DNA from: Mobula hypostoma
Lineage: Eukaryota
DNA: 64,000 nt
Assembly: GCF_963921235.1 (NCBI RefSeq)
Contig: NC_086097.1
Coordinates: 114,020,001 to 114,084,000 of the forward strand
Reading direction: 5' to 3'
Positions 1,088 to 64,000 of the stretch are shown here, one piece after another. The position numbers were made by a program, and so were the translations under genes. Within the stretch, counting starts at the first letter, position 1. Each line of letters opens with the position of its first letter. A model generated the notes under the pieces. The model did not search any database. It was not told the DNA's origin and worked only from the letters and a program-made list of their open reading frames with translations.

Positions 1088-1850
1088 ATGGACTCTGCCT
1101 TCCTAAGGCATCACTCCTTGAAGATGTCTTGAATATGACCTAGGCTAGTACCCATGATGGATCTGACTAATTTTACAAGTTTCTGCAACTTACTTTGATC
1201 TTGTGCTGAAGCCTGCACTATACCAGATTGTGATGCAAACAGTCAGAATACTCTACCATACATTTGTAGAAGTTCTCGAGTGCTTTAGTTGACAAACCAA
1301 ATCCTGTCAAACTCCTAATGAAATATAGCCGTTGTCTCATCTTCTTTATTGATAAGTTGCATCCAGGTTAGGTCCTCAGAGATATTAACATGCAGGAACT
1401 TGAAATTTCTTATTCTCTCTGCTTCTGATCCCTCTATGAGGATTTGTTTGTGTTCCCTCATCTTACCCTTCCTGAAGTCCACAACTAGTTCTTTAGTTTT
1501 GCTGACGTTGAGTGCAAGGCTGTTGCAGTGACACCACTCAACTAACTGATATATCTCGCACTTGTATGCCTTTATGCCCTTTCGTCACCATCTGAATTTG
1601 TTTCAATGGTTGTACCATCAGCAAATTTATAGATGGAATTTGAGCTATACGTAGCACACAGTCATGGGTATAGAGAGGGTAGAGCGGTGGGCTAAGCACA
1701 CATTCCTGTGGTGTGACAGTGTTCAATTGTCAGCGAGGTAGAGATATTATTTCCATAATCCACAGATTGTGGTCTTCTGGTTAGGAAGTCAAGGATCCAA
1801 TTGCAGAAAGAGGTATAGAGGCTTAGGCTCTGCAGTTTTTCAATCAGAGA
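1088..1850 (-). mobile_element. Rex1/Babar LINE RT fragment (degenerate)
   Basis: ORF pieces [29 protein letters not shown] and [19 protein letters not shown]. Homologous to 24389-25580. Confidence 0.85.
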
Positions 1851-1857
1851 TGATGTG

Positions 1858-2800
1858 TCAAAGTCCAAAGTAGATTTTTTTTTATGAAAGTATATACTGT
1901 ACAAGCCATATACTACTCTCCGATTTATTTTCTTGCAGACATTCGGAGTAGTATAAAGGAATGCAATAGAATCAATGAAAAACTACACACAAGCAAAGAC
2001 TGAAAGACAATATGCACAAGAAGGCAAAATGCAAATACAAAATAAATAAATAAATAATGCTGAGTCTCTCTCTCTTAATCTCCTGGAGGAAGGTGCCTGC
2101 GTTTGATTGGTCTCTCTCTCCCTCTCGCTTATTGCTGAAAGAGTCCTGGGTCCTGGGTAAGGTTTAATCAATGCAATTTACGTATTGGATTCGTTAGATC
2201 ATGTTATGATGTTTTTCTGGTTTCTGGTTGCTTCCTTTTTGCTGCTATTTTGTGCGATTTTGATCAGGATAGACTAGCTCTGAAGCCTACGGTCTATGAA
2301 AAATGCAGCACTAGATTGAAACTGAACACTTTATGGTCTGTTTCATTGACTTTGTGGTTTGATGGTTTATATTCTGTGTTTATTGCTGATTTTCTTTTGC
2401 TGTTTGCATGATTTGTTCTTTTTTGCGCGCTAGGGATTTGGTGTTTTCCTTTGAATGGTTTCCATAGTTCTCTTTGTTTCATGGCAAGTCTCAGAGTTGC
2501 ATACTGCATACATTCTTTTATAATCAATGTACTTTGTATCTTTGAACATGAGTTGTAGAGTCCATGAAAGTAAGTTCATAGGTTGTGAAATCAGTTCAAT
2601 GTTGTGGTCAGTGAATTTATCCAGGAGCCGGATGGTTGTAGGATAATTACTGTTCCTGAACCTTGTGATGGGGGACCTAAGGCTCCTGTACCTCCTTCCC
2701 GACGGCAGCAGTGAGAAGAGAGCATGGCCTGAATGGTGGGGGTCCTTGATGACGGATGCTGCTTTCCTGTAGCATCCCTCCTTGTAGATGTGCTCAACGG
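1858..2800 (-). mobile_element. Rex1/Babar 3' end interrupted by an oppositely oriented element with a Rex-type tail (~2065-2547)
   Basis: Tail resembles 57525 onward. 2600-2800 is homologous to the KAASIIKD..HPGHAL.SL.PSGRRYRSL region of other Rex1 copies. Confidence 0.65.
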
Positions 2801-3225
2801 TGATTCAGTTCTGAAAAGTAATTCAATTTTGATGTGGGAGTTTATAGTTTGAAGAGAAAGTCAAATACTTTGCTGAAACACCCATTCTAAAATATCACTG
2901 CTTTTCAATAAAATGACAGGCAATGACAGGATAATGAAGTCTAAGCTGAAATCCAGTCAATTGTACCAACAAATTGAGATTTTAAGAAGATTAGTTGGTT
3001 GCAAGACTTGACAAACCTGAAAGTGGTAAAGTTCCGAACTTTGCATTTTTCCTAAAAAATACTTCAATTAAAATTATTTTGTAATTCTTATCTCATCTTG
3101 TAGCTTGAAAATGTCCATCAGCAAAATCTTTTGGCTACCATTCTGTTATGAAGTCTCTAAAATAGTGATCTCTGTGGACATTGTTTTTGACCTCCTTTTC
3201 AAAGTTCAAAGGTCAAAGTAAATTT

Positions 3226-3909
3226 AGGAGGGGAGGAGAAGATGGCGGTGTGACGCAGCATGCGCAGCCACTCCAAAATGATATTGCATTTGTAAATAGG
3301 TACCGTGCACAATCCTGATTTGATGGAGACAGACGTGAGAAGCACGGAGGAGCATCTGGAGAAACTTCTGAAATGCCCGCTTTGCTGCCACTGCTACTGT
3401 GCAATTGAGAATCTCTGGAGGGGAAGGCCCCAAATCATTCGCTCTGCCTATTTTTCTTGCCGGGGCAGGGGTCAAAGCGCTCGGCAGAGATGGTGCTCGG
3501 TGCTGGGTGTCGGAGGGGTGGTCGGAGGCTCAAAGTTTTCGGACGGTCTCAAGAGTCGGCTGTGGTCGGGTGCTTCCAGGGTGCTGCATCGGCAAGTTTG
3601 CGACGCTGGAAGCTCATGGCAGGGAGAGTTTTTCTTCCTTCTACCGTCTGTGTGAGATGATGGGGCTTTCGAGAGACTTTGAGACTTTTTTTTTACCATG
3701 CCCATGGTCTGTTCTTTATCAAATTATGGTACTGCTTTGCACTGTTGTAACTATATGTTATAATTATGTGGTTTTTGTCAGTTTTTTCAGTCTTGGTTTG
3801 TCTTGTGTTTCTGTGATATCATTCTAGAGGAACATTGTATCATTTCTTAATGCATGCATTACTAAATGACAAAAAAAGAGGACTGCGTGTCCTCATAATC
3901 TAAAAAAAA
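3226..3909 (+). mobile_element. Non-coding ~680-bp retroposon (SINE-like or non-autonomous LINE derivative), copy 1
   Basis: Starts GGAGAAGATGGCG and ends with a GAGGAC-TGCGT-GTCCTC hairpin (3878-3894) plus TAATCT/A tail. Homologous to 20229-20863 and 21039-21483. Splits a Rex-type tail (caaagtaaattt|attatt). Confidence 0.8.
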
Positions 3910-4570
3910 TTATTATTCTAGCATGTATCTGTCGCCATATACTACCCTAAAATTCATTTTCTTGTGGGTACTCACAGTAGATCTAAAGAAATCCAACAGA
4001 AACAAGGACTACACAGAAAGATGTACAAACAGCCACTACTTGTGAATACAAATAGGCAAGGAGGAACTACTGCACGGCAGCTTGTGAGTGCCAATTTAAA
4101 TCTCTCTCTATACTTGTATACCAATGGACAATGAAACATAGCATGATATTAATAGAATAAAGCAATTGTTCAGACCCTATTCTGCCTACAATGAAGCAGA
4201 AGTATCAAGATTGTTGTCTTAACACAGGAGTATCAATTCCCAAAGAAATCATTGAACAGACTAAATAATGTTAAACTAAGGAAAAATAATTAGCCAGAAG
4301 GTACCATTCAAAGTCATGGTAAATTTGTTATCAAAGTACACATATGTTACCAATTTTACCTTGAGATTCATTTTCCTGCAGGCATTTATAGGAAAATAAA
4401 TTTATTTTATTTGTCATTTATTTAACCATACAGTGTGGAGTAGCCCTTTTGAACCTTTGAGCTATACTGCCCCAGCACTGTCCCACAAATCCAATTAACC
4501 CCAACCTAATCACAGAACCATTTGCAATGTCCAATTAACTTGCATGGTATGTCTTTGAACTGTGGGAAGA

Positions 4571-5854
4571 GTATGTCCTTGGTCTGATCAGGGACAGTCA
4601 GCATGGCTTTGTGAAGGGCAGATCGTGTCTAACAAGCCTGATAGAGTTCTTTGAGGAGGTGACCAGGCATATAGATGAGGGTAGTGCAGTGGATGTGATC
4701 TACATGGATTTTAGTAAGGCATTTGACAAGGTTCCACACGGTAGGCTTATTCAGAAAGTTAGAAGGCATGGGATCCAGGGAAGTTTGGCCAGGTGGATTC
4801 AGAATTGTCTTGCCTGCAGAAGGCAGAGGGTGGTGGTGGAGGGAGTACATTCAGATTGGAGGATTGTGACTAGTGGTGTCCCACAAGGATCTGTTCTGGG
4901 ACCTCTACTTTTCGTGATTTTTATTAACGACCTGGATGTCGGGGTAGAAGGCTGGGTTGGCAAATTTGCAGACGACACAAAGGTTGGTGGTGTTGTAGAT
5001 AGTGTAGAGGATTGTCAAAGATTGCAGAGAGACATTGATAGGATGCAGAAGTGGGCTGAGAAGTGGCAGATGGAGTTCAACCCGGAGAAGTATGAGGTGG
5101 TACACTTTGGAAGGACAAACTCCAAGGCAGAGTACAAAGTAAATGGCAGGATACTTGGTAGTGTGAAGGAGCAGAGGGATCTGGGGGTACATGTCCACAG
5201 ATCCCTGAAAGTTGCCTCACAGGTAGATAGGGTAGTTAAGAAAGCTTATGGGGTGTTAGCTTTCATAAGTCGAGGGATAGAGTTTAAGAATCGCGATGTA
5301 ATGATGCAGCTCTATAAAACTCTGGTTAGGCCACACTTGGAGTACTCTGTCCAGTTCTGGTCACCTCACTATAGGAAGGATGTGAAAGCATTGGAAAGGG
5401 TACAGAGGAGATTTACCAAGATGCTGCCTGGTTTAGAAAGTATGCATTATGATCAGAGATTAAGGGAGCTAGGGTTTTATTCTTTGGAGAGAAGGAGGAT
5501 TAGAGGAGACATGATAGAAGTATACAAAATATTAAGAGGAATAGATACAGTGGACAGCCAGCGCCTCTTCCCCAGGGCACCACTGCTCAATACAAGGGGA
5601 CATGGTTTTAAGGTGAGGGGTGGGAAGTTCAAGGGGGATATTAGAGGAAGGTTTTTTACTCAGGGAGTGGTTGGTGCGTGGAATACACTGCCTGAGTCAG
5701 TGGTGGAGGCAGATACACTAGTGAAGTTTAAGAGACTACTAGACAGGTATATGGAGGCATTTAAGGTGGGGGCTTATATGGGAGGCAGGGTTTGAGGGTT
5801 GGCACAACATTGTGGGCTGAAGGGCCTGTACTGTGCTGTACTATTCTATGTTCT
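4571..5854 (+). mobile_element. 5'-truncated CR1 LINE, young copy
   Basis: Uninterrupted RT ORF followed by a CR1 3' UTR and ctattctatgttct tail. Confidence 0.95.
4611..5795 (+). CDS. CR1 ORF2 reverse transcriptase, C-terminal 394 aa (TE-encoded, 5'-truncated)
   Basis: Motifs [60 protein letters not shown]. Confidence 0.9.
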   Translation: [394 protein letters not shown]

Positions 5855-7620: not shown

Positions 7621-7718
7621 ATGAACTATCTTATCAAGAAGCATCCCTTGATGGGAAAGATTAAACATGGATTCAGAGCTGGCTTTTGCAAAGAAGACAG
7701 AGAGTAGTGGTTTTTAAA

Positions 7719-7870
7719 ACGCAAACAGCAGGAATTCTTCAGATGCTGGAAATTCAAGCAACACACATCAAAGTTGCTGGTGAACGCAGCAGGCCAGGCA
7801 GCATCTCTAGGAAGAGACACAGTCGACGTTTCAGGCCCGGACCCTTCATCAGGACTAACTGAAGGAAGAG
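7719..7870 (-). mobile_element. Penelope-like element terminal repeat
   Basis: Reverse complement of the repeat that follows the GIY-YIG-type fragments at 10290-10865 and 45617-46175. Confidence 0.8.
7821..7856 (-). ncRNA. Minimal type I hammerhead ribozyme motif (canonical core)
   Basis: Minus strand AGUC-CUGAUGA-AGGGUCCGGGCCU-GAAA-CG-UC-GACU: stem I AGUC/GACU, CUGANGA and GAAA boxes, GUC cleavage triplet. Confidence 0.75.
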
Positions 7871-7885
7871 TTAGTGAGAGATTTG

Positions 7886-8328
7886 AGATTTAAGAGGCTG
7901 GACAAACTTGGGTTGTTTTCTTTGGACCGGCAAAGGCTGAGGGGAGATCTGATAGAGGTTCATAAAATTATGAGAGGCATAGATAGAGCAGACAGGGATT
8001 ATCTTTTTCCAAGGGTAGAAATGTCTAATACCAGAGGGCATGCATTGAAGGCGAGGGGGGTAGATTCAAAGGGGATGTGAGGGGCAAGTTTTTTCCTCAG
8101 AGAGTGGTGAATGACTGGAATGTGCTTCCTGGTGTGGTGGTAGAGGCAAATACATAAGAGGCTTTTGAGAGACGTTTAGATAGGCCCATGATTATGAGGA
8201 ACATGGAGGGATATGGACATTGTGTAAGTGGGAGGGATTAGTTTTTGGGGGTTTTCAATTTAAGTTTTAGCTGGTTTGGCACAACGCTGTGGACTGAAGG
8301 ACCTGTTCCCATGCTGTCCCATTCTATA
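7886..8328 (+). mobile_element. CR1 3' fragment
   Basis: LDKLGLFSLDRQRLRGDLIEVHKIMRG plus CR1 3' UTR. Similar to 25965-26496. Confidence 0.9.
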
Positions 8329-10289: not shown

Positions 10290-10865
10290 TGTCAAGCATC
10301 TTAGTTCTATCTGCAAAAAACGGGATTTCCCGATGGCCAACAATTTTAATTCCTATCCCCATTCCCAATCCAATGTGTTGGTCCATGGCATCCTTTACTG
10401 CCGTAATAAGGCCACTGTCAGGTTGGAGGAGCAACACCTCATATTTAATCAGCATGAATACTGATTTTTCTAACTTCTGGTCATTTCTTCCCCCACCCCA
10501 CCTTTTTCCATTCCCTATTCTGGCTCCCCTCTTACCCCTCATCTTCTCTTCACCTGCCTATCACCTCCCTCTGGTGCCCTTCCTCCCATGGTCTACTCTC
10601 CTCGCCTATCAGATGCCTTCTTCTTCAGCCTTTTAACTTTTCCACCTATCACCTCCAGCTTCTCACTTCAATCCCCCCTCACCTGGCTTCTCCTACCACC
10701 TTGCAGCCTGTAATCCTTCCTCTCCCTGAACCTTCTTATTCTGGCATCTTCCCATTACTTTTCCAGTCCTGATAAAGGATCGTGGTCTGAAACTTTGACT
10801 CTTTATTCCTTTCCATAGATGCTGCTTGACCTGCTAAGTTCCTTCAGCACTTTGTGTGTGTTACA
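10290..10865 (+). mobile_element. Penelope-like element 3' part: GIY-YIG endonuclease C-terminus, pyrimidine-rich UTR, terminal repeat with decayed hammerhead
   Basis: PMANNFNSYPHSQSNVLVHGILYCRNKATVRLEEQHLIF. cagtcctgataaaggatcgtggtctgaaactttgact at 10764-10800. Confidence 0.8.
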
Positions 10866-12589: not shown

Positions 12590-12814
12590 GGAGGGAGGGG
12601 AGGGGAACGTCGACTCAGACCATGAGAGACCTGCATCAGGCATTTTCATGCCTTACAAGGCACAGATTGGAAGTCTGTGTGGGGCGCCACTCCTCACACA
12701 GACACGAGAGCAAGTGCCTTGCTCAAGGACACAAAAATGCTGCCACAGCTGAGGCTCAAACTAGTGACCTTCAGATCACTAGACGAATTCCTTAACCGCT
12801 TGGCCACGTGCCCG
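12590..12814 (-). mobile_element. tRNA-derived SINE with a CORE-like central motif
   Basis: Minus strand GGGCACGTGGCCAAGCGGTTAAGG ... GTTTGAGCC ... GTGTCCTTGAGCAAGGCACTT. Head shared with 39008-39282. Confidence 0.75.
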
Positions 12815-28156: not shown

Positions 28157-30388
28157 TAGGGGTCGCCAACCCGTTGATCTTTGAGACTTTCCCAGTAGAT
28201 CCCAAAGAAAAATCAAAAATAAATACACAAATACTGTTGTAATGTGAGCATTATAAAAATAAGTAATACTAATTAGGATAATAGTAATATAGCAATATTT
28301 TCACTAAAAAGCTGATTGTAAAGAGAGATTGTTTCCGGGTTGCAGGGGTTTAGCTCCGTTCTTTCTGCCCAGTGCGCATGGGTGTAGTTCCCCCGTCATG
28401 CACCGCGTTTTCAGCGTAGCCTGTGCTGCATCAAAGTGACCAATCAGATTAGATAAGAGTACTGACTGTCGCAAACGTCAATATACGGCAGTGTCCCCAA
28501 CCTCCGGGCCGCAAAGCAGGCAGGGGTACAGCAGTAGTCGGGATGCACACAGCATATTTTTAAGAAAAAAGCCGAAATAAACAAGCTAATTAATTAGGTG
28601 AATGTTGGCTCAGATCAGAGACAACGCAATCGGCAATCGCTTGTGATATCCTGATAGCATAGTGGAGGATCCACGAAAGAAGGCGAAAACATACAAATTC
28701 CATCCAGAATGGGAAGAGGAATTTCTGTTTACTTTGGTGAAAGACAAGCGTGTATGTATGTTGTGCCACCAAACACAAGCACTAACTAAAAGAGGGAATC
28801 TGGAGCGGCACTGCAACACCACCAGGAATTTAAAGACATCTACCCCCAAAGAGCGCAATTCGTGTCTGGAAAGTAGAGCTGAAATCGGGGTTGAAGGCTA
28901 AGCAATCGTTTTCCACAAAACATGCTGCTCAAAATAAGGCTGCTATTGAAGCATTATTTCGTGTAAGTCACCTTTTCGCTAAACACAAGAAGCCTTTTAC
29001 AGATAGCAATTTATTCAAGGAAGTAATGGTCATTACCGCAGAGACTGTTCTTAATGACTTTAAAAACAAAAACGGCATCACAACCTCAATACATAATATA
29101 CCGCTTGGCCCTGCAACAGTGACAAGGAGGGTAGAGTCACCGTCAGAGGACGTGAATATTTTTCACACAGTTCGATGAATCCCTGGATGTAATGCAAACA
29201 GCTCAGCTTGTTGTATTTGTCAGAATGGCTTTCCAGGATTTTACAACAAAGGAAGACTTCCCCACTCTTTCGCAATTAAAGGAAAGAACGAGAGGTGAGG
29301 ATATTTACAATGAGTTTTAAGAAAATATGTCCGTGAATATGACATCCCCATTCATAAACTGGTGGTAATTACTACTGATGGAGCCGAGCAATGCGCGGTG
29401 TGTGCGCTAGTTTTATAGCACTAAAAGTCAGTGCCTACTTCGGGTTAACTTATCAATGTAAAGTTGCATTTTCACAGATGAAAATTATTAAATCTAAGTA
29501 CAGGAGCTGATTTGCTGACAGACACCTCACTGGGGTTGCCAACTTTCTCACTCTCAAATAAGGGACAAAAGTAGCAATCAAATCCCTGGACATTTGTGTT
29601 TACCCCGAGAAAGACTAGCATGACCATGAAGCCTTGTGCAGGCACCTGTGTGCGCATGCGTGATGTGCTGATATTTTTAACCCCACGACTCAGTTTTGGC
29701 TTAATCTTCATTATTTCTACTTTATATAGGCTGTGTATTTATCATCTCATTCCTGCTTTTACTATATGTTAGTGTTATTTTAGGTTTTATGTGTTATTTG
29801 GTATGATTTGGTAGGTTATTTTTTTGGGTCTGGGAACGCTCAAAAAATTTTCCCATATAAATAATGGTAATTGCTTCTTCGGCGTAAAGCATTTCGGCAT
29901 GAAAGGTTTCATAGGAACGTTCTGCCTTGGCGGGGGGAATACAGGACAGTTGGCAACCCTACACCTCACAGACTGTCTCAGACTGGCTTTCTGTAGTTAT
30001 GAGCCAAATTTCAGGGAACTAGCAGAAAGTATTCAGCCCCAGTTATCACACTGAGTGCAACAGTCAATTTTTATTCATTTATTTTTCGTGTTGAACTAAA
30101 ATTAAATAATGAAACTTAGAATTAAAGGTGTGAAGTATTGTAATATGCTTAAAGAAAGACAGCTATGGCCTGTTTGATATGCTAGTTACAGTATTTTCTT
30201 GTTTGAATTAATTTGAAAGTTTGACAAAAGTATTTTGTGTAATTCAAATACAATTCACCCAAGTAAAAGGCCTCAAATTGGAAGTACAATCTGAGCTGTT
30301 CTTTCTCTAAACGATTTAGTAGGTAGATCTTGCCTTTCACTGAGGTCAAGGTAGGGGATCTTGGGCTTAAAAAGGTTGGTGACCATGA
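28157..30388 (+). mobile_element. hAT DNA transposon (Charlie/SPIN, GTF2IRD2-like) with a decayed, internally deleted transposase
   Basis: Ends TAGGGGTCGCCAACC and GGTTGGTGACCATGA; 8-bp TSD ccctagat/ctctagat. BED-finger-like KFHPEWEEEFLF..CMLCHQ..NLERH, AKHKKPFTD, C-terminal HLTDCLRLA. Confidence 0.9.
29531..29961. mobile_element. Non-autonomous hAT (Blackjack-like) element nested in the Charlie-like transposase
   Basis: TIRs TGGGGTTGCCAAC and GTTGGCAACCCTA. Perfect 8-bp TSD cacctcac (29523-29530 and 29962-29969). Confidence 0.9.
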
Positions 30389-33347: not shown

Positions 33348-34268
33348 ATAGAAACATAGAAACATAGAAAATAGGTGCAGGAGTAGGCCATTCGGCCCTT
33401 CGAGCCTGCACCGCCATTTATTATGATCATGGCTGATCATCCAACTCAGAACCCCACCCCAGCCTTCCCTCCATACCCCCTGACCCCCGTAACCACAAGG
33501 GCCATATCTAACTCCCTCTTAAATATAGCCAATGAACTGGCCTCAACTGTTTCCTGTGGCAGAGAATTCCACAGATTCACCACTCTCTGTGTGAAGAAGT
33601 TTTTCCTAATCTCGGTCCTAAAAGGCTTCCCCTCTATCCTCAAACTGTGGCCCCTCGTTCTGGACTTCCCCAACATCGGGAACAATCTTCCTGCATCTAG
33701 CCTGTCCAATCCCTTTAGGATTTTATACGTTTCAATCAGATCCCCCCTCAATCTTCTAAATTCCAACGAGTACAAGCCCAGTTCATCCAGTCTTTCTTCA
33801 TATGAAAGACCTGCCATCCCAGGAATCAATCTGGTGAACCTTCTTTGTACTCCCTCTATGGCAAGGATGTCTTTCCTCAGATTAGGGGACCAAAACTGCA
33901 CACAATACTCCAGGTGTGGTCTCACCAAGGCCTTGTACAACTGCAGTAGTACCTCCCTGCTCCTGTACTCGAATCCTCTCGCTATAAATGCCAGCATACC
34001 ATTCGCCTTTTTCACCGCCTGCTGTACCTGCATGCCCACTTTCAATGACTGGTGTATAATGACACCCAGGTCTCATTGCACCTCCCCTTTTCCTAATCGG
34101 CCACCATTCAGATAATAATCTGTTTTCCTATTTTTGCCACCAAAGTGGATAACTTTACATTTATCCACATTAAATTGCATCTGCCATGAATTTGCCCACT
34201 CACCCAACCTATCCAAGTCACCCTGCATCCTCTTAGCATCCTCCTCACAGCTAACACTGCCACCCAGC
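33348..34268 (-). mobile_element. Young 5'-truncated CR1 nested in the APE domain of the full-length CR1
   Basis: Host reads EIEVKE|PFGGSDHN across the insertion. (atagaaac)n tail. Near-identical to 47733-48269. Confidence 0.92.
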
Positions 34269-35027: not shown

Positions 35028-35948
35028 TTAGTTTAAACCCTCCCTAACAGCTCTATTAAACCTTCCCGGCAGGATATTAGCCCCCTCCGGGTTCAGGTGT
35101 AACCTGTCCATTTTGAACAGGGCATACTTCCCCCAGAAGAGATCCCAATGATCCAAGAATCTGAAGCCCTGCCCCCTGCACCAGTCTCTCAGCCATGCAT
35201 TCATCTGCCTGATCCTACTACTCTTGCCCTCACTAGCACACGGCACAGGTAGCAATCCCGAGATTACTACCCTGGAGGTCCTGCTTCTCAGCTTCCTTCC
35301 TAACTCCCAGAAATCTCTCTTCAGGACCTCCTCCTTTGTCCTATCTATGTCATTGGTACCAACATGTACCAAGACAACTGGCTGCTTACCCTCCCCTTTC
35401 AGAATATTCTGGACCCAATCCGAGACATCCCGTACCCTGGCACTTGGGAGGCAACACACCATGCGAGTATCTCTATCAGGCTCACAGAATCTCCTGTCCG
35501 TTCCCCTGACTATGGAATCCTCTATGACTACTGCATTCCTCTTCACCCTCCTTCCCTCCTGCACAACAGCGCCAGGCTCAGTGCCAGAGACCCGGTCACC
35601 GTGGGCGTCCCCTGTCAGGTCATCCCCCTCAACAGCATCTAGAACAAGATATTTGTTGCTGAAGGAGACAGCCACAGGTGTGCTCTCCACTATCCAGGCA
35701 TCTCCCTTCCCTCTCTTGACAGTGACCCAGTTTTCTGACCCCTGTAGCCTAGGGATGACTACCTCCCTGTAGCTCCTGTCTATCAACTCTTCACTTTCCC
35801 TAGTAAGCAGTAGGTCATCAAGCTGCAGCTGCAGATCCCTAACACGGTCTCTGAGGAGCTGCATCTCGGTGCACCTGGCGCAGATGTGGCCATCAGGGAG
35901 GCTGGAGGTCTCCCAGGATTTCCACATCTGATACCTTGAACAAAGCAC
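35028..35948 (-). CDS. CR1 ORF1p (Zn-finger remnant, coiled coil, SGNH/GDSL esterase-like domain)
   Basis: Open for 306 aa: HICARC, LRDRVRDLQLQLDDL, VIEDSIVR, CLPSARV, HVGTND, DRLHLN. The likely ATG at 35962 is out of frame. Confidence 0.85.
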   Translation of the reverse strand: MLCSRYQMWKSWETSSLPDGHICARCTEMQLLRDRVRDLQLQLDDLLLTRESEELIDRSYREVVIPRLQGSENWVTVKRGKGDAWIVESTPVAVSFSNKYLVLDAVEGDDLTGDAHGDRVSGTEPGAVVQEGRRVKRNAVVIEDSIVRGTDRRFCEPDRDTRMVCCLPSARVRDVSDWVQNILKGEGKQPVVLVHVGTNDIDRTKEEVLKRDFWELGRKLRSRTSRVVISGLLPVPCASEGKSSRIRQMNAWLRDWCRGQGFRFLDHWDLFWGKYALFKMDRLHLNPEGANILPGRFNRAVREGLN

Positions 35949-37372
35949 TAACCTGCAGGCATGCTATCTAATTCTACAGGAATAAAACAGGAAAAATAAG
36001 TCTACTCATCCACTTACCTCGCCAAACAGATGAACTTTTTAAACCGTTAGCTTGTACCATTAGCTGTGAGAACCCTGCTGTTCCTATCTGTCCGGGCCGA
36101 TTCGCGAAGGTGGGGGGGGGAGAAATAAAGAGTTGGTGCTTCGCTCTCGCCTCTTCCCATGTACCGTCAAAGCCCGTTGAATCCAAAGCCCTACACTCTG
36201 CTACCGCTTACTCCGCTGCCCGCTGTATAGGGTGATCTCCTTTTTAAACTCTCCGCACTGTCCTGTTACATCACGTGCCTGCGCAGTCTCGTCCTTCTTG
36301 CACTCGAAGAAGTTTTTAAAAATACTGCCTTCCTTCAGAACTCTGCTCCCACGCCACTCTGTAGTCCCGATCCAAAAGATGTGGTTTTTGAGGAGGATGC
36401 AAAGAATATCATGGATGAAATGAGTATCTAACGAGGATGTCATGAACAGAGCAAACACAAAAAGAGAAATAATGTATGGGATCATGAAAAGGCAATGTCA
36501 CTTCATTGGACATGTGATTAGGAAAGAGGAGTTAGACTGCACGATAACTATGGGAAAAATTGAAGGGAAGAAAGCAAGAGGAAGAGAAAGACAAATGATG
36601 ATGGAGACAGCAGTCAGAGAACTGGAAATGAATACCAATGAATTGATCCACTTGACCCGAAACAGGAGTGTGTGGGCCATGGCAGTCAAAGCTCAAACTG
36701 GGCATGGCACCTGACGATGATGATGATGATACACAATCAGTAAAAATTTGAGAGTGAGAAAGCACGTCTATCAGCAGCTGGGTGAAGAAGTTCCTGTCTG
36801 AGTTCAGTTACGATGGTAGTAAATGGGAAGCTTGGGAGTTGTATCAATCTGTTTAATATTGATTTTATATACAGCTTTGGTTGTAAAGCGGATTAGGTAG
36901 TTCTTCTGCTGGACGTTGAAATTCCTGCACAACCATGTATGAATTAAGCTGCAACTCCTGATCAAAGCTTTAGAAGATAATTTTTTTATTTCTCTTGGTA
37001 TAATATAGCTTCGTTAACTGAGTGTCCAAATAGGAATATTCCAAACAGAGTTTCATTAATTCTAAATACAGTTTATGATAAATAATTTCAGATAAAGTTT
37101 ATGATAAAGGGCTTCCAATTTTAATTGAGTGGGATTTAAGCCAAGACAATTGTCATTGAATAGTAAATAATGATTAATGATGGAAAAGGAGGGAGAATTT
37201 GCCCTCTTTTCACTTGGATTTGGGCCTTTCTGGCAAGACGAGAATTTATTGACCATCCTATTTGCTGAAAAAGGTGCTGGAGAGTGATCTTCTTGAATTG
37301 TCCCCTTCCTCCAGACGCAGTGCTGTTGTACAGAATTCGAGAAGGATCAGCATGACATTTCCACTAGGTCGA

Positions 37373-37703
37373 GGCAGCACGGTAGTGTGGCGGTTAGCGG
37401 AATGCTCTTACAGTGGCCAGTGATCTCTGACCAGGGTTCAACTCTCGCTGCTGCCTGTAAGGAGTTTGTATGTACTCTCATGACCTGATCTGTTTCCTCG
37501 GAGTGCTCCAGTTTCCTCCCACATTCCAAAGATGTACAGCTCAGGTTAATAAGTTGTGGGAATGCTTTGTTGGCACTGGATTATGATGATACTTGTGGGC
37601 TGCCCTAGCACAATCCTCACTGATTTGATTTGACACAAGATGATATATTTCACTGTATGTTTTGATGTTTCAATGTACAAATAGCAAATAAAGCTCATCT
37701 AAT
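37373..37703 (+). mobile_element. tRNA-derived V-SINE-like element with a non-CR1 tail
   Basis: GGCAGCACGGTAGTGTGGCGG ... GGTTCAACTC and V-type core gtgctccagtttcctcccacattccaaaga. Tail shared with ~11590-11700, ~43990-44120 and ~62330-62470. Confidence 0.8.
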
Positions 37704-37715
37704 CAAAATGAGGAT

Positions 37716-37845
37716 GACCTGATGAAGGATCTCAGCATGAAATGTTTATTCCCTTCCACGGATGCTGCCTGACCTGCTGAGTTCCTCCAGTATTTGGTGT
37801 GTGTTGCTCTGGTTTTCCAGCATCTGCAGAATCTCTTGTGTTTAT
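37716..37845 (+). mobile_element. Penelope-like terminal repeat with decayed hammerhead
   Basis: cctgatgaaggatctcagcatgaaatg..gatgctgcctgacctgctgagttcctccag. Confidence 0.75.
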
Positions 37846-38165
37846 GATGTGCCATGGGACTTGGAAGAGTTTTTGCAAATAATGGTGTTCCCATTTCTGA
37901 AGCTTCCATCCTGATCTCATAAAACTGGACTTGAAAATGTGTACAAGATATCATGCTTTCTTCAGCCATGGGCACTGTCAGCACCATCACTTGAACTAAG
38001 TTTTATCTTTGTGATGAATAATTAAATTTTTATCCTGAACACCTACTCTGGTCTACCAGCAGCAGTCCTCTGCAATAACTCAGGATCAAGCTCCCCTATT
38101 TTCAGCTTCCACCGCAGACCACAAATTTTTCCGGAGGAAGCAATCTTTCAAAATTTTGATAATAT

Positions 38166-38312
38166 AAACAAAAGAGATTCTGCAGATGCTGGAAATCCAG
38201 AGTAGCACACAGTCCTGATGAAGGGTCTTAGCCCGAAACATCGACTGTTTATTCCCCTCCATCGATGCTGCCTGACCTGCTGATTTTCTCCAGAATTTTA
38301 TATGTGCTGCTT
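38166..38312. mobile_element. Penelope-like terminal repeat in partially inverted arrangement
   Basis: First ~45 bp are the reverse complement of the repeat 3' end, followed by a forward copy. Same layout at ~61390-61525. Confidence 0.75.
38209..38248 (+). ncRNA. Minimal type I hammerhead ribozyme motif (intact core, stem III ACGU changed to ACAU)
   Basis: ACAGUC-CUGAUGA-AGGGUCUUAGCCC-GAAA-CA-UC-GACUGU, with a 6-bp stem I. Confidence 0.7.
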
Positions 38313-38842
38313 AAACAATCTTGCATTTTGCAAGATTAAACTGCTCAGCTTCTCTTTAGGAACTATTTATCTATGTACCCGCTAAAGTTTTTTTTTGCCT
38401 TTTAATCCATAACATATAGTCTCTTAGATATTTTAGACTAAGGAACTGAAAGCTGATACTTAAAAACTGGAGTAATGATTCACCAGACAAATGTCACCCA
38501 AATGGACACTAAAATGGCTTATACATTTAATCAAAGCCAGTGGAAGAGTTGTTCAAGTATTAGCCTGCAGGCTGTCGATGAACTAAAGAACATTTTAGTT
38601 TACTGATTTCTTTGAACACAGCTGCTATTGCGAAGGATTCTTAAAAGACTATTTTAACGTTACATGAAAATGGTGACCAAGAATATTTATACTTTTGCAT
38701 ATCATCACTAAGATAAATTAAACAAGTTTGATCAGTGATATTACACTATGTATTACTCAACAATCCTAATGTGGATTTTGGAGAGGAGTTAACTTTTCTT
38801 CCTTTTCTCATCCAATAATTTTCTCTCCTCCCCTCTTCTGAA

Positions 38843-39662
38843 ATCAGATTTATTATCGTTGACATATTGATATAACTGGTCACATTGGTGTAATTGGGCA
38901 GTGTGAGCTCATTGAGGCCGAAGTGTCTGTTACTGTGCTGTATCGCTGAATAAATAAAACTAAAAGCATACATAGTGAAATTTTATGCTTTGCAGCATCA
39001 GTACAATGCGCGTGGCCAAGTGGTTAAGGTGTCGGTCTAGTGATCCGAAGGTCACAAGTTCAAGCCTCGGCTGAGGCAGCGTGTTGTGTCCTTGAGAAAG
39101 ACACTCAACCACACATTGCTTTGTGACGACACCGGTGCCAAGCTGTATGGGCCCTAATGCCCTTTCCTTGGACAACATCGGTGGCATGGAGAGGGAAGAC
39201 TTGCAGCATGGGCAACTGCCAGTCTTCCATACAACCTTGCCCAGACCTCAGTCAACATCGAAATCGATGGACAGCTGAAGAAAACATGAACGTTACTGTG
39301 TTACAAAAAATAAATCAACAGATGAATAATGATGCAGCGTTCACAGGTTCATAGACCATTCAGAAATCTGATGGTGGAGGGGAAGGAGCTGTACTATAGA
39401 CATTGTTCCAAGTTCCTGTACCTCCTCCACAGTGGTAGTAATGTGAAGAGGGCATGTCCAGATGGGGATGCCACCTTCTTGAGGCATCGCCTCATGAAGA
39501 TGTCCTCAATGGCAGGGAGGGGAGTGCCTCTGATGAACCGGGCTGAGTTTACAACCCTCTGCAGCCGGTGTGATCCTGTGCATAGAAAGCTCCATGGCAG
39601 CTGTGATGCAATCAGTCTGAATGCTTTCCACTGTGCATCCATAGAAATTTGCAAGTCTTTAG
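38843..39662 (-). mobile_element. Rex1/Babar 3' fragment split by a SINE
   Basis: LQRVVNSARFIRGTPLPAIEDIFMRRCLKK..GHALFTLLP. Confidence 0.8.
39008..39282 (+). mobile_element. tRNA-derived SINE with a CORE-like motif
   Basis: A box TGGCCAAGTGG, B box GTTCAAGCC, gtgtccttgagaaagacact, short GAAGAA tail. Confidence 0.8.
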
Positions 39663-42110: not shown

Positions 42111-42146
42111 TCAAGGATCAAGGATCAAGGATCAAGGATCAAGGAT
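42111..42146. repeat. (TCAAGGA)n tandem repeat, probably a LINE tail, interrupting a CR1 3' end
   Basis: Five 7-mer units. CR1 UTR ccaaactttt|aacctactctaag resumes at ~42525. Confidence 0.75.
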
Positions 42147-42217
42147 TAGGGATAAAACAACACACGCAAAATGCTGGTGAACGCAGCAGGCCAGACTGCA
42201 TCCATAGGAAGAAGCAC

Positions 42218-42253
42218 AGTCGACGTTTCAGGCCGAGACCCTTCGTCAGGACT
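42218..42253 (-). ncRNA. Minimal type I hammerhead ribozyme motif (canonical) in a Penelope-like repeat (~42155-42253)
   Basis: Minus strand AGUC-CUGACGA-AGGGUCUCGGCCU-GAAA-CG-UC-GACU. Confidence 0.78.
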
Positions 42254-45616: not shown

Positions 45617-46175
45617 CCCATGGCCTCCTTCACTGCCACAATGACACACTCTCAGGTTGGAGGAGCAACACTTCATATTCTGTCTGGGTATCTTCAAACC
45701 TGATGCCATGAACATCGATTTCTCTAGCTTTTAGTAATTTCTACCTCCTCCCCTTCCCCCTTTTTTTTCCATTCCCCATCCCGGCTCCCCTCTAACCCCT
45801 TCTCTTCTCCTCACTTGCCCATCACTTCCCCCAGTGGCCCCCGTCCTTCTCTTTCTCCCATGGTGCACTATCCTCTCCTGTCAGATTCCTTTGCCTTCAG
45901 CCCTTTAACTTTTCCACCTTTCACCTCCCAGCTTTTCACCCCATACTCCCACCCACCCGCCCCTTCTCCTGGCTTCACCTATCAGCTACCAGTTTGTACT
46001 CCTTCCCCCCCCGTCACACTTGTTGATTCTGCCTTTCTTTCCAGTACTGATGAAGGGAGTCGACCCAAACTGTCGACTATTTAACCCTCTCCGTAGATGC
46101 TGCCTGACTTGCTGAAAGCCTGCAGCATTTTGTGTGTGCTGCGCTAGATTTCCAGCATCTGCGGAATCTCTTGTG
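45617..46175 (+). mobile_element. Penelope-like element 3' part (GIY-YIG C-terminus, terminal repeat, decayed hammerhead at 46042-46078), inside an old CR1
   Basis: HGLLHCH..TLRLEEQHFIFCLGIFKPDAMNIDF and ctgatgaagggagtcgacccaaactgtcgact. Confidence 0.8.
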
Positions 46176-46619
46176 CACATGTGCTCGGTAACAAGCATGA
46201 TCTCCCCAGCACACTATAGAGCTGCACTGCTACTTTCCTCTGTCATACTCCATTTCCCCTATAATAATGTCAATAATCCATCAGCCTAATTACCAGCTGT
46301 CCTTGAACACTAACTTTTTGTATTTCATGCACCAGGGTTCTCAGATGCTCATTCACCACATTTTGTAGCCTCACTTCACTTTGATAATTTTAGATTTTTT
46401 TGTATCATTATTCCTTCCAAAGTGGACAATTTCCTCACATTAAATTCCATTTTGACAAGTTGTTTCCCACTCGCTTATCTACATTCCTTTGCAGTCTTGT
46501 TATATTCTTCTCACACCTTACACCCACAACACCTGGCTACAATACTTCACGCACGACACACACAAAATGTGGAGGAACTCAGCAGGCCAGGCAGTATCTT
46601 TGGAAAAGAGTAATCAGTC

Positions 46620-46988
46620 GTGAAGCATACGGATCTTTGACCTCCAGAAAGTGTTCACAGCAGGGGTGATTGATAAGTTTGTAGCCTATGCTAGAAGGAG
46701 ATGAGTTATTAACTTCATTAAAAGAGTTGAACTGCACATACCTGCAACAAGAGCTGTATAACTCATCTCCTTCTACCTTAGGCCACAAACTTATCAATCA
46801 CCCCTGCTGGGGACCACTTCTGGAGGTCCAAGACGCCAACTTCTACGAAGAAGTGATCCGTATGCTCCACGACCACTGGACTAAGTGTGCAAATGTAGGA
46901 GGGGACCATGTTGAAAAATAAACGTGCTAGGTTTTCTAAATTTAACTCCTTCTACTGTAGGCCACAAACTTATCAATCACCCCTCGTA
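46620..46988 (+). mobile_element. Rearranged mariner derivative with an internal palindrome
   Basis: Transposase C-terminus NFYEEVIRMLHDHWTKCANVGGDHVEK*. TIR ends aggccacaaacttatcaatcacccctcg-TA; two more TIR copies internally. Confidence 0.8.
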
Positions 46989-47732: not shown

Positions 47733-48269
47733 TAGAAACATAGAAACATAGAAAATAGGTGCAGGAGTAGGCCATTCGGCCCTTCGAGCCTGCACCGCCA
47801 TTTATTATGATCATGGCTGATCATCCAACTCAGAACCCCACCCCAGCCTTCCCTCCATACCCCCTGATCCCCGTAGCCACAAGGGCCATATCTAACTCCC
47901 TCTTAAATATAGCCAATGAACTGGCCTCAACTGTTTCCTGTGGCAGAGAATTCCACAGATTCACCACTCCCTGTGTGAAGAAGTTTTTCCTAATCTCGGT
48001 CCTAAAAGGCTTCCCCTTTATCCTCAAACTGTGACCCCTCGTTCTGGACTTCCCCAACATCAGGAACAATCTTCCTGCATCTAGCCTATCCAATCCCTTT
48101 AGGATTTTATACGTTTCAATCAGATCCCCCCTCAATCTTCTAAATTCCAATGCGTACAAGCCCAGTTCATCCAGTCTTTCTTCATATGAAAGTCCTGCCA
48201 TCCCAGGAATCAATCTGGTGAACCTCCTTTGTACTCACTCTATGGCAAGGATGTCTTTCCTCAGATTAG
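47733..48269 (-). mobile_element. Young 5'-truncated CR1
   Basis: IPGMAGLSYEERLDELGLY..NFFTQGVVNLWNSLP. attaga at 47731-47736 and 48265-48270. Confidence 0.92.
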
Positions 48270-50199: not shown

Positions 50200-50660
50200 A
50201 CATTCACGGCATTTCTCATGGCCCTTGATCTACTCAGTAACTTTCAATTCCCCTCATCTTCACTACTGACGTTCAATCCCTATACACTTCTACCCCCATT
50301 AAGAAGGCCTCAAAGCTCTCTGCTACTTTCTAGACAAAGGAACCAACCAGTTTCCCTCCACCACCACCCTCCTTCATCTGGGAGAACTGGTCCTCATCCT
50401 AAGCAATATTTCCTTCGGTTTCTCCCACTTTCTTCCAAACTCAAGAGATAGCTATGGGCACCAGCTATCCTACCTCTTTGCTGTCTATGTAGAACAGTCC
50501 ATGTTCCAAGTCTTCCCCGATAATGCTCCCTTACTCTTCCTTCGCTGCATTAACAAATGCATTGATGCTGCTCCATGCACCCATGCTGGGATCATTAATT
50601 TCATCAAATTTGCCTCTAACTTCCAACCTGCCCTTAAATTCACTTGGTCCATTTCTGACA
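50200..50660 (+). mobile_element. Penelope-like reverse transcriptase fragment
   Basis: LIFTTDVQSLYTS, ELVLILSNISF, FLRCINKCI (YIDD-equivalent), NFIKFASNFQPALKFTWSISDT. Confidence 0.8.
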
Positions 50661-52017
50661 CCCCCCCCCCCACCTCCTCTTTCTCAAGCGGAAGGGGGTT
50701 CATGGAAGGGAGGGGCATGCAGCTACAGTCCAGGTGCGGGTCGATGGGACTGATAGTTTGGTATGAATAGTTGGGCTGAAGACCTGTTTCTGTGCAGTAA
50801 TGCTCTGGACTCTATGACCTGACTTGAGGGAAGCCACTAAGTAGAATCAAATGAATTAGTGACTAAGTAGAATCAGATGAATTAATAGATAATATTTTTT
50901 AAAGGGACAAAAGATTGACATTTATTGGTTGATGATTTAAGGAAACAGTTTGGGTGTCTATTTAAAAACTTCACTACTTTTGCATGCTGACCTGCTGAAA
51001 GGCCCTTTCTAAGTCAGGAAGTCATTGTTGTACAAATCATCTTAATGGTTTCAATACTGATTAAGCGAGCAGCAGCTAAGGCTTAGTATAGCAGGGGTTG
51101 GTTTCAGGGAGTGGAACTTGGAAGCTCTCTTGCCGCTACGGCCTATTAATTTATTCCCTCTCACTTCCAACTGCAGACCTTGTGACCTTTGCCTTTGAAG
51201 AGTGATACATAGGTTTAAGCTGCAAAATATGGCGGTGGACGTATGTTCGCACTATGATGGACCATTAGCTGTAAGATCTAAGTTGCTTTAGATGCCCTCC
51301 AGCCGTCTGAAGGGTAAAAGAGTGCAGGCATAGTGTACAGAGTAGAAGGGCAACCTTTTGACGAGCCAGCCCACTCTTGCAAATCGCCTGGTGCTTCCCC
51401 ACAATGCGTGAACCGCTTCACCTCCGTGTTGATGGCCACTCAGTAGCAATTCCACTGAGTCTACTCTCAGTGGGAAAGAGGCAGGGCTGATGGGGGAAGT
51501 GGGAGTGCTGTGAAGACTTCCAAATAAAGTAGGTGACCTTACTTCTGGCTAAGCTGTGGTCCAGTTACCCAATGATGTGGAAATTTGCCATAAAAGCAAG
51601 AGCAAATTCTAGAACAGTCTATTTCAAGAGCGCCGTAAAAATATCAGGAACTGGTGGTGTTTGAACACAAATGTTTGAAGGTAACAGGACATTTTAAGAA
51701 AGTAAATATTTAGTAAATATAATTAGACATGTAAGTTACAAAAACTAGGAAATTAAGCTGCTTGGACTAAAGCACAGTTGGATCCCAGCTAGGTATGTTT
51801 TGCTGGGTAATGAAGGGTATAAAGAACAAACAGATGGTATGTAGGATTGTAGCTATAAGAAGAGAAACTGAACTATTTCTGCTAAAGCATCAGTGACTGC
51901 CATAGGGTTGATAAGAGTGTTTAAACTTATGAATAGTTTGGACAGAGAAACTATCTGAAAAAACTTGATAAGCAGAGGCACAGGATGAATTCCACTGTCT
52001 CCCACATCCCAAATCTA

Positions 52018-52974: not shown

Positions 52975-53270
52975 TGAAATCAGTCTATTACAGGCAAAAC
53001 CATTCCTACCATTAAGCAAATCTGCAAGGATCACTACCACAGGAAAGCAGCATCCATCATCAAGGTCCCCCACCATGCAGGCCGTGCTTTATTCTCACTG
53101 GTGCCGTCAGGAAGGAGGGCCAGCAGTCTTAGGTCCCCACACAACCAAGTCCAGGAACAGTTATTACCGTACAATGATAAACCTTCTGAACCAGCATGAA
53201 TAACTTCACTCACATCAACTCTGAATTGGTTCCAAAGCTATGGACTCACTTTCAAGTCATGTTCTCAGTG
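52975..53270 (+). mobile_element. Rex1/Babar 3' fragment
   Basis: KAASIIKVPHHAGRALFSLVPSGRR. Confidence 0.8.
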
Positions 53271-59876: not shown

Positions 59877-60061
59877 AAAGGATCTAGTGCTTTCCTGGCC
59901 TACATAATGAATAAACTCTTCTCAGGCTTCCAGCCAGGTATAGGTATCTATTTAACCAACATTTCGATGACAAGCTGCCATTTTCTTCAGCTTCGACATC
60001 AAAACATCAGTTAATGTCAATATCTGTACCCGGCTGGAAGCCTAAGAAGAATTTATCAACT
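59877..60061. mobile_element. Small fold-back insertion with a decayed hammerhead-like motif (second family) and 9-bp flanking direct repeat
   Basis: Arms ataaactcttctcaggcttccagccaggta and tacccggctggaagcctaagaagaatttat. ttccaataa at 59868-59876 and 60062-60070. Confidence 0.65.
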
Positions 60062-60711: not shown

Positions 60712-61325
60712 GTCATAGCTGGGGAGGTAGTGGGGATAAGCGCCCATCACCCATTAAATATTCCCATGTGTCTCAAACAGCCTTTTTTACCAAGTCCAGC
60801 TCCTGGCCTTCATGTGTGACCTGGCCACTAAGCCCTGCAGAGCTGTTCCTACTGACAGGAGGAGGAGCGAAAAAGGGCTACTGGTGCCTTAAAACCAATT
60901 ATTTCAGACAGATCGGGGGGGGGTTGTCAGCTCATCTAGGGGAAGGAAAGCTCTGATCTCAAACCTCCGCTGCCTTGCAGCTATGCCTACTCCTGGGGAA
61001 GGCTTCGGGAGTAAACCTCGAGGAAAAATTTGGAGCTAGAGTCTCTATGGCCGTTTTACCTTGAGTCTAACACTGACTGGTAACTCCTACGATGCCGCTG
61101 GTGCCAAACTGTATTGGTCTCTGCCGTTCCTTTGGATTCATCAGCTGTGTGGAGAGGAGGAGTGTGCTGCAAGGGAAACCACTTGCTCCCATATCATACT
61201 GCCCTGGCTTGCATATCATGTAGACAGCTAGGACACAACATATCGTACTGCCCTGGCTTGCATATCATGTAGACAGCTAGGACACAACATCCACGGTTCA
61301 GCCCAACCAATAGAAGGCCTCAGTT
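60712..61325 (+). mobile_element. Non-coding element resembling an RTE 5'-UTR derivative, with a 49-bp tandem duplication (61190-61287)
   Basis: ctaggggaaggaaagctctgatctcaaacc resembles RTE 5' UTR motifs as recalled; no ORF. Confidence 0.45.
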
Positions 61326-61678
61326 ATTGAATTGTTATGGATAGTGATTCATTCAGCCTATCAAGCTTATGCCAGCTCCTTGTAGAACAAACAGATGAGA
61401 TTCCAGGGATGCTGGAAATTCATAGCAACACACATAAAATACTGAACCTGATGAAGGGAAACATCCACTGTTTATTCCCCTCCATAGATGCAGCCTGACC
61501 TGCTGATTTCCTCCAGCATTTTGGATTCTTGTAGAATAATCTACTTTGTAGAGCAGGGACACAGCAGCAAATCAGGCTACTTGGCCCATCAAGTAAGCTC
61601 CATCACACCATCATGGCATGTTTAAAATCCCTATCAACCTCATTGTCTTACCTTCTCTCTGTAACCTTTGATGCCCTT

Positions 61679-63292: not shown

Positions 63293-63635
63293 AGTTTAGA
63301 GGGTTATGGAAAATGTTTGCTCTGTGGTAGCATCTATGATAGTGCAGAAGGCTGGGCTTTGGATCCTTGAGGCTATGGGACCTCTAATGGGGAGACTGAA
63401 ATCTACATAGGCCAGTTAGTTGCACTCCAAGACTAATAACATCATAGAGGATTTTGCTGCTGGTGTCGGGGAGGCTTTACATGAGTTTGGCACTGGGAAA
63501 GGAAATTTAACTATGAAAGGCAAGAGCAAAATAACATGAAAACAGGAGTTTGTAAATGAGCCTGGAAGACAGAGGAATGAATTGGAAAACAGTGAGAAAA
63601 AAGCTGGGAAGAAGCATTTTTTTCCATATTTGAGA

Positions 63636-64000
63636 AGAGGTGAGGGCAGCATCAATGGTAGAGAAAGGGAAACTCCATTCTTTGAAGAAGGAAGACATCT
63701 CAGATGTTCTGGAATGGAAAGTCTCAGCCTGAGAAAAGATGTAACGGAGACAGAGGAATAAAAAAAATACAGAATAGCATTTTTATAAGTGACAGGGTGG
63801 GATGAAGTACAATGAAGATGCTTACCCACAGCTCCTCCATTTCCTGGACATATCTCAACATATACCCTCAACATATCTTCCCGTTGTCATGATATTAATA
63901 GAGTTCCCCTTGTCCTTACCTACCAACACATGAGCCTCAGCATCCAGCACATCATTCTTCATAACTTCCACCATCTTCAGTGGAATCCTACCAATAAGCA
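63636..64000. mobile_element. Penelope-like fragments in opposite orientations
   Basis: Minus-strand SEMSSFFKEWSFPFSTIDAALT (63636-63810); plus-strand RVPLVLTY..LSIQHIILHNFHHLQ (~63900-64000). Confidence 0.75.

Follow-up and report, generated by a model that had tools for sequence, protein, structure and literature searches.

A probable minimal type I hammerhead in solo, truncated terminal repeats of a Penelope-like element from a cartilaginous fish

The window analysed here is a stretch of 64,000 nucleotides from Mobula hypostoma, and it is dense in repeats, 38% of it being masked by self-BLAST. On the minus strand, from 7856 to 7821, the letters read AGUC, CUGAUGA, A, GGGU-CCGG-GCCU, GAAA, CG, UC and GACU, an arrangement that a preliminary description had put forward as a canonical minimal hammerhead ribozyme in the terminal repeat of a Penelope-like element (PLE). 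The local features are as follows.

7720..7886, minus strand: solo, 5'-truncated terminal-repeat (pLTR) copy with the 7821 hammerhead, ending with a tail
7720..7757, minus strand: optional 3' tail of the element, 35-40 nt, with two sets of heterogeneous loose ends
7821..7856, minus strand: predicted minimal type I hammerhead (stem I, CUGAUGA plus A, stem II, GAAA-CG-UC, stem I)
7855..7880, minus strand: candidate 3' splice site: a YTNAY resembling a branch point, a pyrimidine tract and a YAG whose end lies two bases before C3

Stem I is formed by AGUC and GACU and has 4-5 bp, the higher figure counting one U-G pair. In the standard hammerhead numbering G12 is the catalytic base, and position N7 and position H17 of the core tolerate variation. 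The core of the motif is complete (C3UGANGA9, G12AAA15.1, U16.1, H17), with C3 at 7852, U16.1 at 7826 and C17 at 7825, and the predicted cleavage falls between 7825 and 7824. An extra A at 7845 follows A9, that is, it lies between positions 9 and 10.1, and could alternatively pair with U11.1. Stem II has 4 bp (G.U, G-C, G-C and U.G, hence two G.U pairs) and a 4-nt loop. The 10.1-11.1 pair is thus G.U here, as it is in four of the seven window copies with letters at this place, two others having G-C. In a canonical type I hammerhead, helix I has about 6 bp and loops 1 and 2 are in contact; here helix I has 4-5 bp, and no closing stem was seen. Stem III is absent in the monomer; the 15.1-16.1 stretch is palindromic, and the ACGU palindrome previously proposed as a stem III is indeed present in 7821 and in the copy at 42218, where a dimer would be needed to form it.

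A descriptor of core, stem II and stem I, composed after the motif had been seen, matches three sites in the window (7821, 38209 and 42218), against a mean of 0.02 in 500 dinucleotide shuffles (490 with none, 10 with one). A descriptor search had been proposed earlier, and this one supports the presence of a minus-strand hammerhead at 7821..7856. On its own, the string CTGATGA..GAAA does not exceed chance, with 5 occurrences in the window versus 2.36 and with 13 of 100 shuffles reaching 5; its matches at 53250 and 58800 do not satisfy the descriptor and were set aside. The predicted stability of the 36-mer equals that of its shuffles (z 0.21). An Rfam search of the window, also proposed earlier, gave three matches at E<=1, with no hammerhead among them. 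The core letters of the "canonical minimal hammerhead" are therefore as claimed, and the word canonical has to be given up.

The repeat is present in eight copies, about one per 8 kb, all with nhmmer E <= 4e-23 for a profile derived from these same eight copies. The six other positions in the preliminary description (10764, 37716, 38209, 42218, 46042 and 61448) all carry copies (BLAST E 9e-28 to 7e-4), and with an eighth copy that was absent from its list the count of at least seven is confirmed. Beyond the copy described above, these are:

10291..10862, plus strand: 5'-truncated PLE copy with the end of the GIY-YIG frame (10291-10446), a pyrimidine-rich 3' UTR and the hammerhead, no tail
37718..37843, plus strand: pLTR copy starting at C2.1, with the tail, a broken stem II and a deletion of the cleavage-site half
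38164..38211, minus strand: piece of the tail in inverted orientation, facing the 38209 copy head to head
38210..38315, plus strand: pLTR copy starting at stem I, with an intact core, a broken palindrome (ACAU) and no tail
42155..42253, minus strand: pLTR copy starting at the first stem I base, intact hammerhead with C7, no tail
45618..46175, plus strand: 5'-truncated PLE copy with the last endonuclease codons (45648-45719), 3' UTR, hammerhead and tail
46546..46620, minus strand: eighth copy, most of the ribozyme missing
61379..61539, plus strand: single insertion with a 12-nt target-site duplication, an inverted tail at about 61390-61446 and a pLTR copy at 61447-61526

All of the copies are solo, there being no full element or tandem pair in the window, and six of the eight contain only the last 75-170 nt of the element. 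Three satisfy the descriptor and five have a broken hammerhead: the 10764 hammerhead (C3 at 10769) has G8 changed to A, the 46042 hammerhead (C3 at 46047) is without G12 and has a stem I mismatch, and the 61448 copy (61447-61526) starts at C2.1 with stem II deleted. With 42218 intact, the copies do form the series from intact to broken that had been described. The nearest intact pair on one strand is 34 kb apart. The closest pair of any kind, 37716 and 38209, at about 495 nt, has one broken member, and a heterodimer of the two was ruled out by eye, stems I and II of 37716 being broken. No tandem array of the repeat unit was found in the window (17 TRF rows, none on the unit), and exact-pattern scans of metagenome and viral contigs gave no copies.

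Several of the copies have informative neighbours. The 5' end of the 7720..7886 copy abuts, head to head, a fragment of a LINE. The 42155..42253 copy adjoins a (TCAAGGA)n array. The 46546..46620 copy starts about at the predicted cut and is joined to an inverted transposon fragment via a 4-nt microhomology, which makes its boundary ambiguous, and with it a reading of this copy as the product of a cleaved RNA. It is worth adding that two of the PLE copies lie at apparent LINE 3' tails (37600-37717 and 42111-42155), one of them next to a 7-nt microsatellite, as might be expected from the bias towards microsatellites that Neptune is reported to have.

Two of the eight copies extend upstream into the broken end of a GIY-YIG endonuclease frame, and in both (10764 and 46042) the hammerhead lies about 300 nt downstream of that frame on the same strand. 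The frame end at 10291-10446 matches the proteins P0007 and P0001 (tblastn E 3e-15 and 6e-13), and the last codons at 45648-45719 give a tblastn E of 3e-6. This makes the repeat the 3' end of a Penelope-like element, and these two siblings bear out its earlier assignment to a PLE terminal repeat. In the homologue P0011, labelled zebra shark (Stegostoma), the endonuclease continues into a peptide resembling the hammerhead frame of the window, so that the link between repeat and PLE is valid for a shark too. Two further PLE pieces lie elsewhere in the window.

50294..50671, plus strand: decayed fragment of a reverse transcriptase from this PLE family (57% identity, tblastn E 1e-36)
63570..63998: internal part of a PLE that contains an inversion (minus at 63570-63820, plus at 63858-63998) and extends beyond the window end

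The reverse transcriptase fragment has five matching proteins among 91 candidates, with 55-59% identity; all five carry the label Hypanus or Mobula, which points to a ray as the likely host. A reverse transcriptase followed by a C-terminal GIY-YIG domain with CxxC is present in homologue P0001, to which the window has matching fragments only. The GIY-YIG/CxxC pattern is seen in 87 of the 120 homologues fetched, and 83 of these 87 have a CX2-5CxxC linker; the Pfam scores of the homologues are under the cut-offs (20.1 vs 22.6 for GIY-YIG, 22.4 vs 29.6 for RVT_1). This linker marks Neptune and Nematis (PMC8557442). The element is thus probably of Neptune type, on the evidence of the linker in its homologues, the linker region itself being outside the window. 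Among 149 of the 199 open frames of at least 55 aa outside repeats, Pfam gave seven matches, all of transposon type (reverse transcriptase, endonuclease, zinc finger), with no host exon.

We also note that a minus-strand frame at 7722-7853 is open for 44 codons through the entire pLTR of the 7821 copy, and, once spliced, may form the start of the PLE ORF; searched against proteins, this frame gave no match at E<=10 among five candidates. The NCBI gene model for P0001 departs from the PLE frame exactly at its last codon. GT-containing, donor-like letters are found at the end of the PLE frame in the window (10470-10485 and 45728-45740), a possible splice donor at the ORF stop.

The locus was compared with four runs from other organisms, the run type being a guess. 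From each, 1214-5016 contigs were aligned to 7680-7900; shares are given as depth, not copy number, and variant figures are among the variants listed. These numbers of contigs, together with the eight copies in 64 kb, agree with the high abundance previously claimed for the repeat. Loose ends in the runs at 7718/7722 and 7886 coincide with the bounds of the 7720..7886 copy. Loop II of the 7821 motif carries two private changes: the letter at 7839 differs from 92-98% of the depth in the related runs, and that at 7838 from most of it. N7 is C in 14-85% of the depth and position 11.1 is C in 13-48%, U and C both pairing with G; the other ribozyme changes listed fall in loop II, in the outer stem I bases and at CpG sites. 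G12 is changed to A in 7, 9, 25 and 22% of the C11.1-bearing depth of the four runs, and the loop II CpG is changed in 5, 7, 21 and 17% in the same order. This similarity of rates means that the catalytic base is not spared in the dispersed copies, which would appear to decay neutrally once inserted. Covariation among the eight decayed window copies is not above that of shuffles (278/500 for pairing, 298/500 for score), in an alignment of which one row consists of unrelated letters and another is misaligned at stem I.

The 3' ends of the copies fall into two groups. Three of the eight copies end about 130 nt after C3, with the tail present, and five end about 35-45 nt earlier. Both of these ends recur in the related runs as loose ends (7718-7722 and 7757-7759) whose flanks are unrelated. 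In two of the tail-less copies (38209 and 61448) the tail is instead found inverted at the 5' end. For PLEs, a tail of 30-40 bp and an inverted 5' piece have been described (PMC8557442), and the tail has been attributed to two internal start sites of reverse transcription (PMC11167929). In the present family, reverse transcription may have two alternative starting points, some 90 and 130 nt 3' of the ribozyme, and would mostly end early, so that short copies become scattered.

The closest known system is the minimal hammerhead (min-HHR) of metazoan PLE pLTRs (Cervera and De la Peña 2014, PMC4209133), which shares with the window family CUGANGA followed by an extra base, a short helix I, GAAA-N-N-U-H with a palindromic 15.2/16.2, and the location in a terminal repeat found mostly as solo truncated copies. 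An Acropora digitifera Neptune row (Fig. S3 of the same paper) is of near-identical design, with CUGACGAA, a 4-bp stem II, a 4-nt loop and CGUC. In contrast to the min-HHRs, stem II of the window family is short (4 bp) and G10.1.U11.1 is common. Terms for shark, skate or chimaera do not occur in the searchable part of the supplement of PMC4209133. The Neptune-clade PLEs (Craig et al. 2021, PMC8557442) share the order of reverse transcriptase and C-terminal GIY-YIG with CxxC, the CX2-5CxxC linker (in the homologues), a one-end tail of 30-40 bp and the inverted 5' piece, with the differences that the window holds fragments only and that the linker is common to Nematis too. The Poseidon element PAc of the green anole (Frangieh et al. 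2024, PMC11167929) likewise has two alternative 3' ends, with a hammerhead about 100-130 nt upstream of them, whereas Poseidon is another clade and the PAc ORF starts at stem II; in the window family, the AUG within the core disappears whenever N7 is C. Non-LTR retrozymes (Cervera and De la Peña 2020, PMC7229834; Li et al. 2026 preprint) share the type I hammerhead and the PLE ancestry, and their hosts are vertebrates including one chondrichthyan, as here. However, these form tandem arrays with mostly canonical ribozymes, whereas the window copies are dispersed and solo, and some are attached to the end of an ORF. The 7821 hammerhead is neither a canonical type I hammerhead nor a tandem retrozyme. 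Judged by its letters, it fits the PLE min-HHR in all sequence features except the G10.1-C11.1 pair and covariation, and it is an ordinary decayed solo copy of a class described in 2014 (PMC4209133). No description of this particular hammerhead family was found in the literature searched, and preprint supplements and Repbase/Dfam may contain one.

Structure predictions provide clues as to how the motif might work. The predicted best fold of the monomer pairs the core G5-G8 with CGUC (P 0.44-0.53, versus 0.001-0.013 for an open core). With 200 nt of native context, stems I and II have a predicted probability of about 0 in both 7821 and 42218, and of 0.37 in 38209. For a dimer, ViennaRNA places the double-hammerhead fold at -9.5 kcal/mol versus a minimum of -35.1, in a model that leaves out tertiary contacts and Mg2+. 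Dimers of PLE hammerheads reportedly cleave, according to Lünse et al. Published min-HHRs show no activity as monomers and weak activity as dimers (PMC4209133), and the anole PLE motif cleaves only with its protein, the substrate for insertion being mainly uncleaved RNA (PMC11167929). Following such published work on PLEs, the ACGU palindromes of two ribozymes in an active tandem element would come together as a single stem III or, alternatively, the protein of the element would chaperone the fold; the paired or chaperoned ribozyme would then cut after C17. A solo monomer is predicted to fold its core onto CGUC and to remain off, and the 7821 copy, lacking a partner with which stem III could be completed, is likely inactive. 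The ribozyme would thus serve the tandem source element, with the solo copies as by-products. Seven of the eight copies retain sequence upstream of the predicted cut; their templates would have been uncleaved or re-ligated at the cut, and most were for this reason probably uncleaved. Taken together, we hold with high confidence that the 36 bases are a minimal type I hammerhead in the pLTR of an abundant, likely Neptune-type PLE, and that the solo copy is likely inactive.

The 5' ends of the copies raise a further proposal. In four of the eight these ends lie at the 5' edge of stem I, no more than 5 nt apart, a clustering reached in 0.6% to 0.01% of simulations of uniform truncation over 150-600 nt (a post hoc figure from few copies), and it suggests copying from uncleaved RNA. 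A 3' splice site has the consensus YTNAY, pyrimidine tract and YAG. All three copies with upstream sequence of their own (7821, 10764 and 46042) have a YTNAY, 76-80% pyrimidines and a YAG two bases before C3, a signal that is weak because the entire UTR is pyrimidine-rich; equally pyrimidine-rich sites make up 155 of the 4290 YAG sites in the window. Penelope of D. virilis has an intron whose end is the 5' end of helix I (PMC4209133; PMC2377424). The copies might accordingly be a record of the element RNA, with an acceptor or RNA start at the stem I edge, uncleaved templates, and a ribozyme toggled by splicing or protein binding, a proposal that we regard as unlikely. Upstream of the four clustered copies no common first exon was seen, so that stalling of the reverse transcriptase at a structure explains the cluster equally.

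The same clustering of starts, and the fact that six of the eight copies hold only the last 75-170 nt, could also be accommodated if the short copies were a non-autonomous element of their own, similar to a retrozyme or a SINE and multiplying via short or circular RNA with the help of PLE enzymes. One contig of the related runs has a tandem-like joint (7855 to 7740), and retrozymes are reported in one chondrichthyan (bioRxiv 10.64898/2026.07.22.740005). Against this, none of the 17 TRF rows in the window is an array of the unit, two of the copies continue into the endonuclease frame, and the copies end at the PLE tail sites and not at the cut, as unit-length circles would require. We therefore consider an independent element very improbable, and prefer to regard the short copies as truncated by-products of the PLE.

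The preliminary description went further and suggested that the repeat spreads latent self-cleaving sites through the genome. In its strongest form this would have dispersed copies cutting host transcripts in vivo, either because neighbouring copies pair within a single pre-mRNA or because the PLE protein assists. A density of about one copy per 8 kb, the three descriptor-passing copies in 64 kb and the cleavage of the anole ribozyme upon addition of protein (PMC11167929) all speak for such a role. However, the copies are solo and five of the eight are broken, the intact same-strand pair is separated by 34 kb, and of the closest pair (37716/38209, about 495 nt) one member is broken; the decay of G12 keeps pace with that of CpG sites; and the core is trapped in the predicted monomer, with stems I and II at a native-context probability of about 0 (7821 and 42218) or 0.37 (38209). 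Moreover, in the anole element the RNA required for activity reaches beyond the genomic 3' ends, and RNA-seq ends at the cut were not found (PMC11167929). The suggestion of genome-wide latent sites is thus not sustained, and the cutting of host transcripts is very improbable. Finally, the lack of an Rfam match, the z of 0.21, the lack of covariation within the window, the poor cleavage of published min-HHRs (PMC4209133) and a published test in which eight of nine Xenopus dimers gave no cleavage would fit a merely hammerhead-like motif, or a relic that never cleaves even within an active element, but the complete core at the place expected in a PLE, the three descriptor matches versus 0.02, the fact that N7 is the variable core position and the close match to the coral Neptune motif make this, too, a very improbable reading.

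A minimal hammerhead of a PLE, likely silent in its solo copies, adds a cartilaginous-fish family to the known class, and Rfam overlooks such motifs. The role of PLE hammerheads has been called unclear (PMC8557442), and cleavage is dispensable in vitro (PMC11167929). With a family as dense as this one, that role becomes testable through counts of copy ends in a single genome.

The window also contains a number of other repeats. A plus-strand LINE reverse transcriptase fragment lies at 4539-5792 (418 codons stop-free, RVT_1 E 3e-26). Two LINE 3' ends, at 33349-33885 and 47733-48269, are 97.8% identical over 537 nt, which indicates a recently active family, and upstream of the first of these is the esterase-like ORF1 of a long LINE (35031-35963, minus). 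A mariner-like transposon end forms a 200-nt palindrome at 46617-46984 (arms 46634-46709 and 46758-46833, 88%), and its terminal repeat recurs at 46939-46984; the Rfam match to MIR8742, far under the gathering score, is this inverted repeat and was discarded. Two tRNA-like heads, at 39008-39105 and 12713-12811 (Rfam tRNA 26 bits, under gathering), are probably a tRNA-derived SINE, and a plus-strand Spin-doc zinc finger at 28647-29175 (Pfam E 6e-6) is probably a decayed hAT-type transposase. There is an imperfect palindrome of 146 nt at 59911-60056, and a tandem duplication of 49 nt at 61190-61290 (2.1 copies, 98%).
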